Origin: Candidatus Zixiibacteriota bacterium
GTDB lineage: Bacteria; Zixibacteria; MSB-5A5; CAIYYT01
Direction: 5' to 3'
Assembly (NCBI GenBank): GCA_040235515.1
Contig: JBECKX010000060.1
Location: 1 to 28,777, forward strand
Length of the DNA: 28,777 bases
The translations under genes were made by a program, and so were the position numbers. The stretch's first letter is position 1. Every line of letters begins with the position of its first letter. Positions 3,081 through 25,826 of the stretch are shown here, piece after piece. The notes under the pieces were generated by a model. It did no database searches and was not told where the DNA came from. It was given only the letters and a program-made list of their open reading frames with translations.

Positions 3081-6002
3081 TCAGATGTCGAGCTTGATAT
3101 GGTACTGCTTCATCTTGAGGCGCAGCGTCGACTCGGGGATCGAAAGCGCCTCGGCGGCGTGTTTCTTGACGCCTTCCGCCTTGCGCAGAGCTTCGACGAT
3201 AAACTCACGCTCAAGCCGTCCGAGGTACTCATAGAGGGAGAAATCACCGACCGGTTCGGCGGGCTTATGACCCGATTCTTTGAGGCTATCGGTGATGCGA
3301 CGGGAGATCATATAGCTTGAAATTGACTTCTTTTCACCGGCGAGCAGGACAAGCTTCTTCAACTCATTTTCTAACTCACGAATATTGCCGGGCCAATTGT
3401 AGTCTGCCAGGATACGGAAAGCCTCCGGTTCCACCTTGACCTCCGGGTCGAGCTTGCTGACGAAGTGCCGAATCAACAACGGCAAATCTTCGGTGCGCTC
3501 GCGCAGCGGCGGCAGTTTGACTGCAAAGGTTGAGAGGCGGTAGTAGAGATCCTGACGGAACTCACCATTCTCCATCGCCTTCTTCAGGTCGGCGTTCGTG
3601 GCAGAAATGATTCTGACATCGACGCTGCGAGGGGTGGTTTCGCCCAGGCGAACCACTTCCTTCTCCTCGATCACACGCAGCAGCTTCACCTGCACGGACA
3701 ATGGCAAATCACCGATTTCGTCGAGGAAAAACGTACCGCCGTCCGCTTCTTCGAACAGCCCCACCTTCTCACCATCCGCGCCGGTGAATGCTCCCCGCTT
3801 ATAGCCGAACAACTCCGATTCGAGCAGGGTCTCCGGCAGCGCGGCGCAATTGACAGAGACGAAGCGGCGATCGCGGCGGTTCGAGTTGTAGTGAAGTGCT
3901 TTGGCGAGCAGGTCCTTACCGGTTCCCGTTTCACCCTCGATCAGAATCGAAATCGAGGAATCCTTTACCTGGTTCACCCGCTCAAGCGTTTCGAGCATCT
4001 CCGGGTTTGAGGTAATGATGTTTGGGAACGCGAGTTGCTTCTGCAGTTGGTCTTTCAGGCGGCGATTGTCCTCTGCCAGCCTCCGTTTCTGTTCTTCCGA
4101 CGACTTGAACGCGATGATGTCGGAAAATGCGATGGCGAACTGCAGATTCGCCTGCGAAAATGAGTCCGCGACGTCGTGATTGCGATCGACATAGATGAGC
4201 CCATCGGTATCCTGCGAAAGTTGAATCGGAATCGAGAGGAAACCATCGATCTGGTCGTCATCGATGCCGAGGAAATCGAACATCCGACGCCGGTCAGTCG
4301 AGAGATGGGAAACCAGCAATGGTCGGTCGAGCGGCAACGAACCGCCTCGTCCGTTGCTCAGAGCTTTGGTGACCTTGTTCAGTCTGGTTTGATCGAATTC
4401 GAGTGCCGCGAGCGGTTCGAAGTTGTTGCTGACAGAATCGTAGCTGAGGATAAAGGCGCGCTTGCCGTGCAGCCGATCACGCAGGACTTTCAAGGTGTCT
4501 TCAAGCGAGCCGCTCTTGAGCGAGCCATATTCGATGCGGGAGAGGAGCGAACTGAAGAGGCTGTACTCATTCTCGTTCGAGAGTCCGGAGTCAACCATAT
4601 CTTCTTCGATCTTCATCCGCAGGATCCGGCATTCCTCAATCGAGCGATCGTCGCGCTTCTCGGCGGCCATCGCCTCGCACTTTGAAAGGTGGGAGAGCGC
4701 CTCATCATACTGCCGCGCCTGAACTTCCAGCAGGCTGAACTGGTAGTGGCAGCCAATCTGCAGACTGGTAATGACCAGCTTGTCAGCCAACCGCAGCGAG
4801 GCATGAAGATAGCGCGATGCCGCCTCACGATAGGCATCCGATTTCAGCAACGACTTGCCGGCGATATAGTACGCGTGCGCCAGTTCCCGAAGTTCACCGG
4901 CGTGATCGATCGACGCAATCAAATCGCCGAACAACTCGGCCGATTCAGCGTAGTTGCCGTCAACAGCTTTGAGGGCTGCCAGAATCTTGTCTGCGCCTGC
5001 GACTTCGATCGATTCACCGACACTCTCGGCGACTTCACGCGCCCGCCGTGCATGATCCTCAGCGAGTGCGAGATTTCCGACGCGATACTCAAGTTCCGCG
5101 ATGCGGCGCTCGGTCTGGCTGATGATCGCACTCTCGGGGGCGATGCGGTTGCCGATCTCGATTGCGTGCTCGTAATGTTCACGTGACATGCGCAGGTCAC
5201 CAAGTGCCTGGCACAATTCACCCATATACTCGTGATAGATAGCGCGTTCGCGGATCAGGTTGTTCTGGCGAATCAGTTCGTATGCCCTGTCGAGCGTCTG
5301 GCGCGCCAGCGCATATTCTTCCTGCAGGTACATCACGTAACCGAGTGACAACAGGTTCTTGGCTTCCGAAGCTGACGAACCGGTGCGGCGTGCTACTTCG
5401 ACACACCCTTCCAACGTCTGCCGCGCTTGCTTCCACTCTCCGATGAGTATCTGCACGCGCGCACGGTTACCGCGAGCCTTGTTGACAGCAAGCTCGGAGG
5501 TCTCCGGCAACGACTCCAGCAGTTCCAGCGACTCCGCCAGAAAATTGTCGGCCAGCTTGAACTCACCCCGAATAAAGTACAACTGGGCGAGTTTGTTGTA
5601 ACAGCCGACAAGCTCGTCGTCTCGGTCAATTCTACGGAAGGAAGAAATGGCATCCCTGATGAATGCCTCACCCGCTTTTAGATCGCCGAGGGCAATGTAG
5701 ATCTTGCCCAGCAAGGCCTGCAGACGGCCAATGACACGGTTCTCGGCGGTGGCACTGACCAGCTCGTAAGCCTTCAGCGCCTCGCCCAGGACTTCGCGCG
5801 GCGGTTTATGATGAAATGCCAAAGCCGCCTGAGCATAGTGGAAAGTACCGATCAGGATATCATCCCCTGACTGGCTGACGCCGGCAGAAAGCTTACCGAG
5901 CTCGCTGCGAGCGTCTTCAAACCTATGCTCGTTAATCAGCCAATGTACCGCTTCTAAGCGTTGAGCTGATTCGAGCTTTGCATTACCCAAATTCGTGTCC
6001 AT
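3081..6002 (-). CDS. Sigma-54-dependent transcriptional activator: N-terminal TPR array, GAF-like domain, AAA+ domain, Fis-type HTH
   Basis: Walker A GETGTGKD, GAFTGA loop (3777-3794), Walker B FFLDEIG, FRQDLYYRL, WPGNIRELEN, HTH KKHAAEALSIPESTLRLKMK. The first ~470 aa are repeated helical TPR-like units. No receiver domain and no signal peptide. Confidence 0.95.
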   Translation of the reverse strand: MDTNLGNAKLESAQRLEAVHWLINEHRFEDARSELGKLSAGVSQSGDDILIGTFHYAQAALAFHHKPPREVLGEALKAYELVSATAENRVIGRLQALLGKIYIALGDLKAGEAFIRDAISSFRRIDRDDELVGCYNKLAQLYFIRGEFKLADNFLAESLELLESLPETSELAVNKARGNRARVQILIGEWKQARQTLEGCVEVARRTGSSASEAKNLLSLGYVMYLQEEYALARQTLDRAYELIRQNNLIRERAIYHEYMGELCQALGDLRMSREHYEHAIEIGNRIAPESAIISQTERRIAELEYRVGNLALAEDHARRAREVAESVGESIEVAGADKILAALKAVDGNYAESAELFGDLIASIDHAGELRELAHAYYIAGKSLLKSDAYREAASRYLHASLRLADKLVITSLQIGCHYQFSLLEVQARQYDEALSHLSKCEAMAAEKRDDRSIEECRILRMKIEEDMVDSGLSNENEYSLFSSLLSRIEYGSLKSGSLEDTLKVLRDRLHGKRAFILSYDSVSNNFEPLAALEFDQTRLNKVTKALSNGRGGSLPLDRPLLVSHLSTDRRRMFDFLGIDDDQIDGFLSIPIQLSQDTDGLIYVDRNHDVADSFSQANLQFAIAFSDIIAFKSSEEQKRRLAEDNRRLKDQLQKQLAFPNIITSNPEMLETLERVNQVKDSSISILIEGETGTGKDLLAKALHYNSNRRDRRFVSVNCAALPETLLESELFGYKRGAFTGADGEKVGLFEEADGGTFFLDEIGDLPLSVQVKLLRVIEEKEVVRLGETTPRSVDVRIISATNADLKKAMENGEFRQDLYYRLSTFAVKLPPLRERTEDLPLLIRHFVSKLDPEVKVEPEAFRILADYNWPGNIRELENELKKLVLLAGEKKSISSYMISRRITDSLKESGHKPAEPVGDFSLYEYLGRLEREFIVEALRKAEGVKKHAAEALSIPESTLRLKMKQYHIKLDI

Positions 6003-6011
6003 CGAAAATCA

Positions 6012-6054
6012 GCGTTTCTAAACGTTTTTCGCGTTTCTAAAGCGTTCTTCTAAA
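6012..6054. repeat. Direct repeats GCGTTTCTAAA (x2) plus a variant, between the small gene and the activator start
   Basis: Copies at 6012-6022 and 6031-6041; GCGTTCTTCTAAA at 6042-6054. Confidence 0.7.
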
Positions 6055-6065
6055 TGTACGGCTAA

Positions 6066-6416
6066 CTATCTGTAGTCCGGCTTCGCTACCTTTCCAGATA
6101 GATACTTACTTCCTCTTTCAGGCTTCGGCGAAACCTGATGCACTTGTTGACCAATCACGTACGAGTCGATTCCGGCAAAAAGCCAATATGCCCAGAATCT
6201 AATCCTGAACATGAAGACATCGTCGCCGCTGTCAGAATCATCGACATTGCCGATGTCGTCAGGGTCGTTCCCGATGTTTTCACTGGAGTTCGACGCGGTA
6301 GTCGTGTCGGTCGGCCTGTCATCCCAGGGATGGTCGAGCGCTGTCGCTTGACTTGACAGCAGAAGTGCAACCGAGGCAGTAATGATCACCAAAAATGTAA
6401 TTTTCAGTAGGTTCAT
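6066..6416 (-). CDS. Small secreted protein / putative signalling pre-pro-peptide (116 aa)
   Basis: AGGAGG at 6425-6430 lies 8 nt before ATG 6416 (preferred over GTG 6422). Sec signal MNLLKITFLVIITASVALLLSSQATA with an A-x-A site, then LDHPWDD, an acidic low-complexity linker, an aromatic patch and a basic tail. Confidence 0.8.
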   Translation of the reverse strand: MNLLKITFLVIITASVALLLSSQATALDHPWDDRPTDTTTASNSSENIGNDPDDIGNVDDSDSGDDVFMFRIRFWAYWLFAGIDSYVIGQQVHQVSPKPERGSKYLSGKVAKPDYR

Positions 6417-6534
6417 ACCCACCGCCTCCTAGACTTCACTGTTGAGAGTCTATAGATAATAAATGTTCACTAACTCGAAGCTGTGGTCGCTTCAAAATTT
6501 CAGAATAGAATTGTTTGTGCAAGGATGCACACAC

Positions 6535-6563
6535 ACGATAAGCGTCGCTGCAAACCTTGTCAA
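6535..6563 (-). promoter_or_regulatory. Sigma70-type promoter for the small gene / activator pair
   Basis: TTGACA (6563-6558), 17-nt spacer, TATCGT (6540-6535). Confidence 0.65.
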
Positions 6564-6772
6564 GCAGTTTTTGCGCCGGAGGAAACTTTGAAGCGCAACC
6601 ATGACACAATCCCTTTTACATTAACAACTTACGAAGCGGCGCAGAAAATGCGAGCAGCTCGGATCGCGGCTGACCAAGACCACGTATCAGCAAGTTCCGA
6701 CCGGTCTGAAGCGAGTCGGCAGCCAGCCAAGACCCAAAAAGCCCTCAAAGCCACCGAACATCGCTGAGCAGA

Positions 6773-15261: not shown

Positions 15262-15857
15262 GTAGGGGCGAATGGCATTCGCCCCTACGGTGTCTGTATG
15301 TCCGAACCCCTGCGGTTCGGACCCGGAGTTATCATGTTACGGTTTGTGTGCCCAACTCCGAGTCCCCTCGCCCTCTTGAGGGAGAGGGGCTAGGGGTGAG
15401 GGTGCTTTACTGAGGCAGGAGCCGCAGAGAAGACTAAGCCCGCCCGTTGGGTGGGAGACCTGCAGTGGTTCGCTGTGCAGGCCCGGGTTCGCAGTGGATT
15501 CCCGCCTGCGCGGGAATGACGCTCCCATTCGGTCGCGGTTGTTGTCATGCCCCAAGAGGGCATGACCTACGTTGCTCGTTCTGGGGAGATGTGAGTGGCT
15601 CCGACCCCCCTCGCCCTCTTGAGGGAGAGGGGCCGGGGGTGAGGGTGCCTTGTGGCGGTGGGCGTAGCATGCTGCGCCCCTACGAAAGACGTCATGCCCC
15701 AAGAGGGCATGACCTACGTTGCTCGTTCTGGGGAACTGTGAGTGACTCCGACTCCCCTCGCCCTCTTGAGGGAGAGGGGCCGGGGGTGAGGGTGCTTTGT
15801 GGCGGTTGGCGCAGCATGCTGCGCCCCTACGAAAGACGTCACGCCCCAAGAGGGCAT
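15262..15857. repeat. Mosaic REP-like palindrome array including a 147-bp tandem duplication
   Basis: GTAGGGGCGAATG-G-CATTCGCCCCTAC (15262-15288); GTCCGAACC-N5-GGTTCGGAC (15300-15322); three copies of CCCCTCGCCCTCTTGAGGGAGAGGGGCyrGGGGTGAGGG; ATTCCC-N8-GGGAAT (15498-15517); repeat units 15544-15690 and 15691-15837 plus a partial third unit 15838-15857. Confidence 0.9.
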
Positions 15858-15865
15858 CAGCTACT

Positions 15866-22505: not shown

Positions 22506-25500
22506 TTAGCTGCAGCTACACTTCGGAGCAGGACCGCCACCGAAGATGTAGTTGATGATGTATACAGCGTCACCGATTGAGATCGCGCCGCTACCATCAG
22601 CATCACCATTGAGATCGGTACACGGAGCAGGGCCGCCACCGAAGATGTAGTTGATGATGAATACGGCGTCACCAATCGAGATCGCGCCACTGCAGTCGGC
22701 ATCGCCGCAAATGACAGCCGGTACGGAGCCGGTGGCGAGGAAGCCTTCGCAGTAGAGAGCGGTCCAGTTATTCAGCCAGTTGTCGGTGCTGTTGAAGGCA
22801 CCGGCGTACGGGGCTGAGGCGAACCAGGCATCTTCAGCCGGAGCATCGGAGAGGCTCATGCTGAAGACTACGGAGGTCGCAGCCGGGCGCGGGTCGAGGG
22901 CGTTGGCGCCCAGGACACGGCTCATAGTGCGATCGTTGTTCGTGAACAGCGGGTTCGCAACGATGTTGTCCCAGGTTCCGATACCGGCGGCAGCACCACC
23001 AAGAGTCGGATAGTCGGTGAACACGCGCTGAGCTTCGTGCGGATCGTCGCCTACGAGGGCGGCTGAAGTCATGGCAGTCGGGTCGAACATGCACCAGACG
23101 GTACCATAGATGTCAAGATCAGCCACGGCGAAAGCCGGGTTGTCATAGACGCAACCGGAAACCCAGTTGGCGTCGGTGTATGACCCGGAGGCGCAACGGC
23201 TGTGATACTCGGCATCGATGGTCGGCGTCGTCGCGCAATCCGGAATGGGAGCGAGACTGACGGTTCCGCCTTCATCTTCGAACTCGACGCCTTCGCGCGG
23301 GAATTCGACAAAGATGGCGTTACGGATATGACCACCGGTGTTTTCCTTCGCCTTGATCGCAACATCCTGCTGGGCGGTGGTGACGTTCTCACCCTGACCC
23401 ATCGCAGTGACATTGTAGACGATCGGGCGTGACTTCGGATCGGCATCGATGTTGCCATCGTCGCCGTCGATCTCGAAGGTGCGGTCGCCGCGATCATCGT
23501 TGTAGATCGAGAAGAGGAACTGGAGCTTACCGTTGTAGCCCTGATCCCAATCGAATGAATCGTCATCATTGAAAGCTGAGACGAGGTAGGTGCAGTTGAC
23601 GTTTCCGCCGAACCATTCGTAACCGTCGTCAGCGTTGGCATATACTTCAACGTGGTCGATAGTCGTACCGGCGCCGACGCCACCAAAGGTCAGACCATTG
23701 ATTTCGTTGGCAGCACCGATGACAGAACCACCGTGCTTGAGCTCAACATAGGTAACGACACCGGAGTTGTCGTTGCAGTCGCAACCACCGTAACGGGTGT
23801 TGGCTACCGGCGGCAGGCCCTCGATGTTGTTGCCAAGGCAGACTTCGCCAAGGCCACCATCGATGGTACCGGTGTTGATCGGAGCATTGCCGAGGAGAAT
23901 CAGCGAGCCCCAGAGACCGCGGTCGGTCTGGAGGAGATCACCGACGACATCGATATCGTCCGTCTCAGCGGTGAAGATGATCGGGCAATCCTCGGTACCT
24001 TCGGCAAAGATCTTGCCGTTACGGGTGATGATCAGCGAAGAAACTTCACCCGGGGAAAGGCCGACTTCACCCTTGATGATGGTGCCCTTCTCGATGAAGA
24101 GACTGGCGCCATTGGTGACGAAGGTCGGACCCTGAAGAAGATAGATGTTTTCAGCATTCCAGACCGTGTTTTCAGTGATCTCGAATGAGGTGAACGGTGA
24201 AGCGGGGCCTACCGGAACGACTGTCTTACCGACTTCGGTCTTGCAGTCTACGACGCGGGTGTCGCAGCGCAGGTAGTCGAGGCTCCAGAGACAGGTCCAG
24301 TTGCAGAGCCAGTTATCGGTTGCATTGAAAGCGCCACGATACGGGGCTGAGTCGAAGAAAGCATCCTCGGTCGGGGCATCGACGACGTCGTCGAAAGCCG
24401 GACCATCAGCTGCCGGGCGAGGATCGATCGCGTTGGCGCCCTGGACGCGGATGTTGGCGTCGTCCTGGCCGTAGAAACGCGGGTTGTCGATGACGTTGGC
24501 CCAGGTCTGGCCGGTAACGGTGGTGGCCAGCGCCGGGTAGTCGACGAAGAGACGCTGCACTTCGTGCGGATCGTCGCCGATGTCATCCTGGGTAGTGATC
24601 TCATCCGGTCCGATGTTGTACCAGAGAGTACCATAGATGGTCAGGTTGGCGCCGTTGCCCATAACACCGGCATAAAGCGGATTGCTGTAGTCGCAACCGC
24701 CGACGTAGTTGGCGTCGACGTAGGTGCCGGTCCAGCAGCGTGACTGCTTCTCAGCATCAAGCACGCCGGAACAATCGTTGAACGCACCAACGGTTCCGCC
24801 TTCATCCTCAAACTCTACGCCTTCACGCGGGAAATCGTAGAAGATGGCGTTACGGATATGACCACCGGTGTTTTCCTTAGCTTTGATCGCCACATCCTGC
24901 TGGGCTGTGACAACGGTGTTGCCCTGGCCGTAGGCGGTGACGTTATAGACGGTGGGACGCGAATAAGGCTGCGAGTCAATGTTGCCGTCGTCACTGTCGA
25001 TCTCGAAGGTACGATCACCACGATCGTCGTTGTAGATCGAGAAGAGGAACTGAAGCTTTCCGTTGTAACCCTGATCCCAATCGAATGAATCGTCGTCGTT
25101 GAAGGACGAAACGAGATACTTGCAGTTGACGGTTCCACCGAACCACTCGTAACCATCATCGGCGTTAGCGTACACTTCGATGTGATCGATCGTGGTGCCG
25201 GCGCCGACGCCACCAAAGGTAAGACCATTGATTTCGTTGGCGGCACCGAGAACGGATCCGCCGTGCTTCAGGACGACATACTGGACTACACCGGAATTGT
25301 CGTCGCAGTCACAGCCACCGTAACGGGTCTTGGCTCCCGGAGGAAGACCTTCGATGTTGTTTCCAAGACAGGTTTCACCGAGACCGGCGTCAACCGTACC
25401 GGTGTTGATCGGAGCGTTACCGAGCAGGATCAGCGAACCCCAGAGGCCGCGATCGGTATTGGTAAGATCAAACGGATCAGTCAGGTCGTCCGTGCAGGCG

Positions 25501-25826
25501 GTGAAGATAATCGGCTCGGCTTCGGTACCGGTCGCGAAGATCTGGGCGCCACGCTGAACGATGAGTGAGGCGACATCTCCCGGAGGAAGACCAACGATAC
25601 CTTTGATGATGGTACCGGCCTCGATGTTGAGGGTGGTAGCCGGGGTGACGTAGGTCGGTCCCTGCAGGACATAGACGTTGCCGTTGGTCCAGTTGACCAC
25701 ACCGGCCGGCAGATCGCCTATCGGCACAAAGACCAGGGCCTTACCCGGCTCATTGGTACACTGACCGAAAGCAACCGAAGTCGCCATGATCAGCAGGAGA
25801 GCAATCAGTAAGAGTTTGCGATGCAC
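22506..25826 (-). CDS. Large secreted protein: two tandem ~500-aa acidic, probably beta-helical domains plus a C-terminal dockerin-like domain
   Basis: GTG start with AGGAGG at 25833-25838; signal peptide ending AFG|Q; duplicated NEINGLTFGGVGAGTTIDHxEVYANADDGYEWFGG...DDDSFDWDQGY blocks; twin GDADxSGAISIGDAVxIINYIFGGGPAP at the C terminus. Confidence 0.92.
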   Translation of the reverse strand: MHRKLLLIALLLIMATSVAFGQCTNEPGKALVFVPIGDLPAGVVNWTNGNVYVLQGPTYVTPATTLNIEAGTIIKGIVGLPPGDVASLIVQRGAQIFATGTEAEPIIFTACTDDLTDPFDLTNTDRGLWGSLILLGNAPINTGTVDAGLGETCLGNNIEGLPPGAKTRYGGCDCDDNSGVVQYVVLKHGGSVLGAANEINGLTFGGVGAGTTIDHIEVYANADDGYEWFGGTVNCKYLVSSFNDDDSFDWDQGYNGKLQFLFSIYNDDRGDRTFEIDSDDGNIDSQPYSRPTVYNVTAYGQGNTVVTAQQDVAIKAKENTGGHIRNAIFYDFPREGVEFEDEGGTVGAFNDCSGVLDAEKQSRCWTGTYVDANYVGGCDYSNPLYAGVMGNGANLTIYGTLWYNIGPDEITTQDDIGDDPHEVQRLFVDYPALATTVTGQTWANVIDNPRFYGQDDANIRVQGANAIDPRPAADGPAFDDVVDAPTEDAFFDSAPYRGAFNATDNWLCNWTCLWSLDYLRCDTRVVDCKTEVGKTVVPVGPASPFTSFEITENTVWNAENIYLLQGPTFVTNGASLFIEKGTIIKGEVGLSPGEVSSLIITRNGKIFAEGTEDCPIIFTAETDDIDVVGDLLQTDRGLWGSLILLGNAPINTGTIDGGLGEVCLGNNIEGLPPVANTRYGGCDCNDNSGVVTYVELKHGGSVIGAANEINGLTFGGVGAGTTIDHVEVYANADDGYEWFGGNVNCTYLVSAFNDDDSFDWDQGYNGKLQFLFSIYNDDRGDRTFEIDGDDGNIDADPKSRPIVYNVTAMGQGENVTTAQQDVAIKAKENTGGHIRNAIFVEFPREGVEFEDEGGTVSLAPIPDCATTPTIDAEYHSRCASGSYTDANWVSGCVYDNPAFAVADLDIYGTVWCMFDPTAMTSAALVGDDPHEAQRVFTDYPTLGGAAAGIGTWDNIVANPLFTNNDRTMSRVLGANALDPRPAATSVVFSMSLSDAPAEDAWFASAPYAGAFNSTDNWLNNWTALYCEGFLATGSVPAVICGDADCSGAISIGDAVFIINYIFGGGPAPCTDLNGDADGSGAISIGDAVYIINYIFGGGPAPKCSCS

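Follow-up and report, generated by a model that had tools for sequence, protein, structure and literature searches.

The contig JBECKX010000060.1 from the Candidatus Zixiibacteriota assembly GCA_040235515.1 (28,777 nt, the whole stretch that was analyzed; hereinafter the window, to which all positions refer unless another contig is named) carries, on the minus strand, two adjacent genes that might encode an exported signal protein and its cytoplasmic sensor. The first gene (6066-6416) encodes a 116-aa predicted exported pro-protein that matches no Pfam family, and the second one (3081-6002), separated from the first by 63 nt, encodes a 973-aa sigma54 activator with the TPR-GAF-AAA+-helix-turn-helix (HTH) architecture, as delineated by the open reading frame (ORF), Pfam matches and homologs; it is denoted here class I. 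A ribosome-binding site (RBS), AGGAGG (6425-6430), is located 8 nt 5' of the pro-protein ATG. The gene coordinates, the 63-bp spacing and the strong RBS were all found as described in the initial annotation of this region, which was made from the sequence alone. The sigma70-type promoter that it reported, TTGACA-N17-TATCGT (6535-6563), is present as well; taken alone, such a site is no better than chance (5 sites vs 5.5 in shuffled sequences), but TTGAC is found 5' of 65 of the 69 homologous peptide genes. Comparison of these loci shows the two genes to be one predicted sigma70 operon with the pro-protein gene in the first position. The two genes were also described as a self-contained unit, which does not hold, because the predicted target promoters (see below) reside on other contigs. 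An inverted repeat, TAGACT-N11-AGTCTA (6430-6452), touches the pro-protein RBS and is possibly a translation-control hairpin; a genome of the same genus has a version with a 9-nt spacer.

A Pfam scan of the 973-aa protein identifies TPRs, including a match to PF17874 (MalT-type TPR), the Sigma54_activat domain (residues 662-828), an AAA lid and HTH_8. The AAA+ domain (3519-4019, minus strand) contains an intact GAFTGA motif (residues 737-742), and the C-terminal HTH (3102-3218, minus strand) is of the Fis type, with the recognition helix PESTLRLK. Given this AAA+ domain, the C-terminal HTH and the presence of RpoN in this 100%-complete genome, the protein has the features of a sigma54-dependent bacterial enhancer-binding protein (bEBP). 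No Pfam match to a receiver domain was detected in the protein and no kinase was found among the neighbor genes scanned, in agreement with the initial annotation, so that this is not a response regulator of the NtrC/LuxO type, for which a receiver and a cognate kinase would be expected. The GAF-like domain (about residues 500-631; 4110-4505, minus strand) was recovered through homologs: PF01590 is above the cut-off at about residues 496-631 in all four homologs scanned, two of them 53% identical to the activator, but the domain proposed in the initial annotation was not detected in the 973-aa protein itself at E<=0.1.

The pro-protein starts with a predicted Sec/SPase I signal peptide (residues 1-26; 6339-6416, minus strand) that includes an N-terminal Lys, a hydrophobic core and the cleavage site ATA followed by L, so that inspection by eye and a hydropathy of 2.81 bear out the Sec signal noticed originally. 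Signal hydropathy ranges from 2.4 to 3.8 in all 69 homologous pro-proteins (by a heuristic, not SignalP), an AxA-like site precedes the motif described next in 64 of these, and their lengths are 87-124 aa (median 108, n=69); as cautioned in the initial annotation, the peptide gene is thus upstream of the receptor gene and longer than Phr or PapR. The sole conserved part of the mature protein is the motif DHPWDD (residues 28-33; 6318-6335, minus strand), with H retained in 63, P in 66, W in 69 and the following D in 55 of the 69 homologs; across the Zixibacteria loci, it generalizes to [HND][PAT]W. The position of the motif varies: it can start 1-2 residues after the signal peptide or 10-20 residues in, and in Krumholzibacteriota, it lies in the middle of the protein. 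Conservation of the motif alone, at a floating position, is compatible with a ligand that is excised or linear. The active NprX peptide is likewise an internal stretch of its pro-peptide, according to the accessible portion of PMC3763537.

Analysis of the genomic contexts reveals a near perfect association of the two genes. A search of 251 Zixibacteria genomes with the TPR-GAF region yielded 430 matches, with activator homologs in 220 genomes, and 70 of the matches (the 30 best and 40 chosen for family spread) were examined. A signal-peptide ORF of 87-124 aa is located directly upstream of the activator at 69 of these 70 loci; the remaining locus has only 174 nt of upstream DNA. No activator homologs were found in families f7, f13, f14 and f17, and five genomes from these families encode RpoN but contain only weak TPR matches in unrelated long proteins. 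Within the genome under study, the motif is present in only 2 of the 65 small ORFs that combine an RBS with a signal peptide, each of the two located ahead of a TPR-sigma54 gene, namely the class I activator and a paralog on contig C110 that belongs to a second group of activators (class II) lacking GAF altogether; none of the remaining 15 sigma54 activators, including two located at the ends of contigs, was found to be preceded by a motif-containing ORF. The pro-protein motif is HPWQD in 20 of 20 class II loci of the family, and HPWG in the class II loci of family f16. A tandem array at locus L066 (4843-7999) consists of a class II activator, two HPW pro-proteins (HPWQD and HPWEE) and a further TPR-sigma54 activator. 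In Krumholzibacteriota, the TPR family is represented in all 61 genomes searched, and each of the 30 best loci has an upstream signal ORF (91-138 aa) in which a G-D-x-D-type motif, usually GDADD or GDPDD, was recognized by eye at an internal position. The shorter paralogs in this phylum (class II) are preceded by a related G[DE]P motif in 16 of 20 loci, and no pro-protein was found at the other four, one of which lacks upstream DNA; a heuristic search gave no clear pro-protein at one class I-type locus (L201, genome G251) either. A collection scan with full-length distant homologs retrieved mostly generic NtrC proteins; among the 10 other genomes reached in this way, only the Krumholzibacteriia one had clear family members, and Eisenbacteria-labelled proteins, available as protein sequences rather than loci, share the groove residues discussed below. 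The question raised by the initial annotation, namely, whether a small signal-peptide ORF is consistently found upstream of the homologs, is thus answered in the affirmative, with a clean within-genome null, and judging by gene neighborhoods, the pairing is real and conserved across two phyla.

The TPR region (residues 1-474; 4581-6002, minus strand) is modelled by AlphaFold as a confident all-helical superhelix (pLDDT 93.5). In the alignment, N136, N179, E258, Y259, Q296, R299 and E333 are invariant. The recurring Asn residues of the initial annotation are among the conserved ones: N136 (CYNKLA) and N179 (RGNRAR) are present in all 46 aligned TPR domains, and N216 (AKNLLS) is retained in 83% of 59 class I proteins. 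The invariant polar residues fall on alternate helices which, by the TPR register of the model, would be the A helices lining the groove. Structural alignment places Rap (Z 30.5, 349 of 355 residues aligned, root-mean-square deviation 3.8), NprR (Z 29.7) and RapF (Z 29.1) at the top, on a par with APC5 (see below), and the first ~370 TPR residues align with the whole TPR chains of Rap and NprR. The peptide contacts of NprR listed in the accessible text of PMC3763537 (also PMC6458997) are Y193, N194, E241, S274, N275, N306 and D309, with N275 conserved in its family. By the aligned endpoints alone, Y135-N136 correspond to NprR Y193-N194 and N216 to N275, an approximate mapping because the hidden Markov model (HMM) register is off by about one repeat. 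Co-folding of TPR residues 1-481 with pro-protein residues 27-58 gave a score of 0.02 and was run without controls, and is used here neither for nor against binding.

The motif and the receptor change together. Each receptor class has its own version of the motif (HPWD[DE], HPWQD, HPWG and GDxD), and in Krumholzibacteriota, alongside a more acidic motif, the groove shows the replacements F143 to K, L186 to K, R182 to I/V and Q296 to E, a change that may represent a single evolutionary event. In one form or another, the motif is very probably the ligand of the TPR domain.

The promoters of the peptide genes point to the DNA site recognized by the activator. In an unbiased dyad count over 69 such promoters, CGCA-N5-TGCG is found at 47 loci, compared to 18 for the best unrelated dyad, and when one end mismatch is allowed, it is present in 51 of the 69 promoters vs 2.7 in shuffled sequences. 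For the class I loci in which the HTH could be read (a locus with a truncated HTH was excluded), the box accompanies the recognition helix PESTLRLK in 42 of 43 cases and PESSLRFK in none of 15, so that the helix tracks the presence of the box. Two boxes, identified by dyad conservation, precede the operon in the window, a distal one (CGCA-N5-TGCG, 6640-6652), which is the predicted activator site, and a proximal one (CGCA-N5-TGCT, 6563-6575), which overlaps the first base of the -35 hexamer and is a predicted autorepression site; this overlap recurs in most loci of family f1. The regions upstream of the class I peptide genes showed no sigma54 site at a conserved position. The class II promoters of family f16 (L063-L067, L071) have no nearby TTGAC and instead show a sigma54-like site at positions -91 to -96 relative to the peptide gene, an arrangement that would allow positive feedback.

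A matrix of the box trained on the peptide-gene promoters, with the window left out, was used to scan the intergenic sigma54-like sites of the genome. The box lies upstream of 7 of 95 such sites, five of these at a distance of 103-112 bp; the scan was not blind, because the scoring of the sigma54 -12 element was relaxed after the sites on contigs C41 and C104 had been seen, and footprinting in relatives served as the independent check. Three of the seven sites (C135, C41 and C104) were checked in this manner; further candidates are C134:2942 and C203:7688. The site on C135 (promoter region at about 5200-4970, minus strand) precedes an RNA of ~105 nt, RNA1, with an invariant loop, a terminator, a fold z of -5.2 and compensatory changes in 5 of 20 pairs. 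RNA1 was detected in 67 of 121 genomes, compared to none of the 12 from the four families without activators; its sigma54 site is retained in 20 of 20 fetched loci, with the box 110-116 bp upstream in 19. The second target, RNA-C41, is a non-coding element of 270-480 nt with a terminator, found in 19 of 21 genomes of the family, with the sigma54 site and the box in 12 of 12 fetched loci (the box at 96-103 or 176-181 bp). It contains an invariant 40-nt core, and its first ten bases are nearly the same as those of RNA1 (C41:2220-2590, minus strand; L262-L273). At the third target, the sigma54 site and the box are retained in 20 of 20 loci (L274-L293; box at 91-108 bp), and the promoter precedes a 65-aa membrane protein in all 11 loci examined. 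This conserved two-helix protein is unannotated (C104:24600-24790, minus strand) and is encoded between the sigma54 promoter and a gene, with a sigma70 promoter of its own, for a secreted TPR protein of 593 aa. Many of these promoters (C41, C104 and homologs of RNA1) have a non-canonical -12 element, TTGAT, TTGTT or TTGGA instead of TTGC, that is conserved in relatives. Thus, the sigma54-promoter output proposed by the initial annotation gains support from conserved sites with the box at three promoters, and the location of the box at 91-116 bp in these footprinted sets is that expected of an enhancer. We strongly infer that CGCA-N5-TGCG is the site recognized by the HTH domain of the activator, which represses the sigma70 promoter of its own operon and activates three or more sigma54 promoters. 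Neither RNA1 nor RNA-C41 (the latter searched on its strand) matches an Rfam family, and Hfq (PF17209) was not found in the genome, so that, by both marks, these RNAs are not Hfq-dependent small RNAs of the Qrr kind. CsrA is present in the genome and RNA1 was considered as a CsrA sponge, an option that was rejected given the few GGA sites in this RNA.

The class II activators appear to belong to a parallel circuit that might be connected to the first one. All 19 class II loci with downstream DNA have a downstream sigma54 site and a conserved RNA, and 16 of the 19 contain a palindrome, GCG[CT]G-N6-C[GA]CGC, that is unlike the class I box. In the genome under study, the conserved sigma54-driven RNA downstream of the class II activator (C110:9036-9200) has no Rfam match over the part covered. 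A complement of the RNA1 loop is found in 14 of 20 class II leaders. The z score of the duplex between RNA1 and the class II leader is -1.4 to -4.7 in 11 matched genomes (-2 or lower in 9), compared to -1.2 to +1.5 for the class I leader. Pairing of RNA1 with the leader of the class II peptide/activator operon, which would link the two circuits, is suggestive only, given that this leader ranks 50 of 2753 as an RNA1 partner in this genome. Another leader, that of a 656-aa TonB-receptor-like gene (C121:20444), has an 11-nt stretch complementary to the RNA1 loop, located 85 nt upstream of the start.

Taken together, these observations are best compatible with a peptide circuit that resembles the RRNPP systems and has an output similar to that of LuxO and Qrr, with export, trimming and re-import of the peptide; we estimate the probability of this scheme at roughly 55%. 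Under this scheme, the sigma70 operon would be transcribed through the pro-protein and then the activator gene; Sec export and signal cleavage are predicted to place the motif at the N-terminus of the mature protein or close to it; periplasmic or extracellular peptidases would free a short His-Pro-Trp-Asp peptide; and the proton-driven transporter OPT, or CstA, rather than Opp, would bring it back into the cell. OPT was found in 243 of 251 genomes, including the one under study (contig C153), which also encodes CstA (contig C55). Judging by the fold and the co-variation, the peptide would then occupy the groove of TPR helices A4-A9, where N136, N179 and N216 might hold its backbone and R182, R251 and R299 its acidic residues. 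By analogy with the general behavior of bEBPs, binding would relieve inhibition of AAA+ by TPR/GAF, although the sign could be the reverse. The activator would then, with strong support from the conserved promoters, switch on the ~105-nt RNA, the 270-480-nt RNA and the 65-aa membrane protein while repressing its own promoter, and with weaker support, the short RNA may pair with the class II operon leader, chaining the two circuits. The peptide may pass between cells or just through the periplasm of its producer.

Several findings weigh against this scheme. Searches for Opp (PF00496) gave no match in this genome or in 53 of 61 from the phylum, PTR2 was not found in this genome either, and the presence of OPT is unspecific because it is also encoded in families without the system. 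No conserved cleavage site flanking the motif was found among the 69 homologs. The motif is nearly invariant across the phylum, unlike the diverging RRNPP peptides, which argues against a kin-specific quorum signal. In structural alignment, APC5 ties with Rap and NprR (Z 30.0), and MalT domain III and APPBP2 are near (Z 28.1), so that the match to the Rap/NprR fold is not proof of common descent; in Foldseek and HMM searches, eukaryotic peptide-binding TPRs come first and Rap and NprR rank lower. Each case of motif-receptor co-variation may reflect one or few events because kin are not independent. On its own, the perfect box shows no enrichment in intergenic regions (16 of 79), and the location of a box over the sigma70 -35 of the class I operon predicts negative, not positive, feedback. 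Thus, the RRNPP-like reading of the initial annotation is partly supported: the pairing, the Rap/NprR-like fold with its polar groove, the joint change of motif and receptor and the sigma54 output stand, and the invariance of the motif, the transporters, the ties in fold and the sizes of both proteins (see below) count against it.

Under the main alternative, which is considerably less probable, the pair is a sensor of export status: the pro-protein would normally be removed by Sec, and when export or the envelope is impaired, the retained precursor would bind the cytoplasmic TPR domain and trigger the sigma54-driven RNAs, which would adjust envelope gene expression, with no need for re-import. 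Such a mechanism would explain why Opp is not found, why the motif is invariant across the phylum, why there are no conserved processing sites while the motif floats, why the pro-protein is co-transcribed from a self-limiting sigma70 promoter, and why the outputs are RNAs and a small membrane protein. However, the signal peptides are uniformly strong rather than marginal, the several paralogs per genome with distinct motifs, including the tandem pro-proteins at L066, exceed the need for one probe, the nearest structural matches are receptors that sense short peptides after their re-import, and the candidate importer OPT is almost universal.

It is improbable that the mature protein acts while attached to the membrane, with a membrane partner or an intramembrane protease relaying the motif or a conformational signal. 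Such attachment would involve an aromatic, probably amphipathic stretch (residues 67-81; 6174-6218, minus strand), the character of which is conserved whereas the sequence is not: hydrophobic residues cluster (z>1) in 61 of 69 pro-proteins, and in Krumholzibacteriota, such a cluster flanks the motif on either side; a basic tail follows the stretch in 51 of 69, and a rhomboid gene divergently adjoins several family f16 class II loci. The stretch is too weak for a true transmembrane helix, however, reaching the 19-residue transmembrane level in 1 of 69 proteins, and no gene for a membrane partner is consistently found next to the class I pair in different families. Equally hard to sustain is the possibility that the small protein is a mere co-transcribed neighbor or a SecM/VemP-type upstream ORF controlling translation, with the TPR domain binding another protein or a metabolite like MalT domain III: MalT domain III is close in fold and PF17874 is matched, and secretion monitors, small exported ORFs upstream of the gene that they control, resemble the layout, but the linkage is perfect across paralogs and two phyla while the flanking genes change, motif and groove residues change together, and the motif is close to the N-terminus, with some 250 nt between it and the start of the activator, whereas arrest peptides carry their conserved motif at the C-terminus.

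The preferred scheme, a re-imported peptide sensed by the TPR domain, can be compared with several known systems. The part of PMC10075063 that is accessible gives five criteria for RRNPP systems: a pro-peptide of 10-100 aa, a Sec signal, a receptor of 250-500 aa, peptide-binding TPRs with Asn, and adjacency. Three of these features are present, namely the Sec signal (by the heuristic), TPRs that are of the peptide-binding type and have conserved Asn, and adjacency (63 nt here; 69 of 70 loci), and both sizes fall outside the limits (116 aa, with homologs of 87-124 aa; 973 aa, the TPR part alone being 474 aa), so the pair is not classified as an RRNPP member, although it is predicted to work like one. 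As in Rap-Phr, NprR-NprX, PlcR-PapR, AimR-AimP and AloR-AloP, insofar as the accessible portions of the reports describe these (PMC10075063, PMC3763537, PMC6458997, PMC7425212), a Sec-type pro-peptide gene adjoins the gene for a cytoplasmic TPR protein; also shared are a Rap/NprR-like superhelix with conserved Asn, a short conserved motif in a variable pro-protein, and several paralogous pairs per genome. Unlike the RRNPP systems, the hosts are diderm, the output is through sigma54, the receptor is a 973-aa protein with GAF, AAA+ and a C-terminal Fis-HTH rather than an N-terminal HTH or a phosphatase, the pro-peptide gene is upstream and its product is about 110 aa long (21-50 aa in validated RRNPP pro-peptides), Opp is not found in most genomes, and the motif is almost invariant in the phylum. 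In Paenibacillus Alo, the receptor gene lies upstream of the peptide gene, the reverse of the Zixibacteria order (PMC7425212, accessible part).

The output resembles that of Vibrio LuxO, a sigma54 activator that, in the accessible part of PMC2632942, drives small RNAs and represses itself through a site overlapping the -35 element, as predicted here; the differences from LuxO-sigma54-Qrr are the input, a predicted peptide-binding TPR instead of a phosphorylated receiver, with no kinase seen, and the RNAs, which match no Rfam family in a genome where Hfq is not found. MalT and the STAND proteins (1hz4; PF17874) use a similar superhelix (Z 28.1) as the ligand sensor of an ATP-dependent activator, but the activator described here has neither the STAND NOD module nor the LuxR HTH. 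MalT is not known to have a paired exported peptide. NifA and FhlA are one-component GAF-type sigma54 activators; the GAF-AAA+-Fis HTH core with an intact GAFTGA is shared with these, whereas the 474-aa TPR sensor and the paired exported protein are additional, and the class II paralogs lack GAF. In the literature searched, which left out most subscription papers and supplements, intracellular peptide sensing by TPRs is described for Firmicutes and their mobile elements, and no description of this pro-protein/activator pair was found; within that scope, the pair is undescribed, and its mechanism is what we infer here.

Other features of the window include the downstream genes for lplA and a TonB-dependent receptor, which are syntenic in families f1, f2, f5, f6 and f18; this synteny was not seen at the examined loci of f3, f10, f12, f15 and f16. 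The TonB-dependent receptor gene (minus strand, ending at 1577) was rejected as a direct target because its upstream region contains no conserved sigma54 site. That region (1578-2034) contains a T[AG]AAC-N17/18-GTCT element followed by GCTTGAC, and both are present before the receptor gene in most of 13 aligned regions from several families; the former resembles an extracytoplasmic function (ECF)-type promoter, and the latter is presumably a sigma70 -35 element. The intergenic region after ackA (15544-15864) contains a GC-rich, REP-like 147-bp tandem repeat (2.2 copies, 94% alike), and the gene at 22506-25826 (minus strand), downstream of a TonB-dependent receptor, encodes a secreted 1106-aa protein with an internal duplication, two C-terminal dockerin-like repeats and no Pfam match at E<=1e-4.

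Among the genomes searched, 220 of 251 from Zixibacteria and all 61 from Krumholzibacteriota encode the architecture described here, which the published RRNPP detector would overlook because of its size limits. Because a ligand, an operator and target promoters are all predicted, the system can be reconstituted in E. coli, with no need to grow its host; the orthogonal peptide/activator pairs are of possible use in synthetic biology, and the analysis points to three conserved RNAs without an Rfam family. We tentatively suggest, as a possibility that falls short of an even chance, that Zixibacteria, Krumholzibacteriota and probably Eisenbacteria share a core multi-channel peptide network built of Rap/NprR-like TPR-sigma54 fusions and undescribed Hfq-independent RNAs, in which a class I RNA would act on the class II operon and the ligand would reach its receptor without Opp, via OPT or as an unexported precursor. 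If the latter is the case, the system would be a bacterial protein-export checkpoint.

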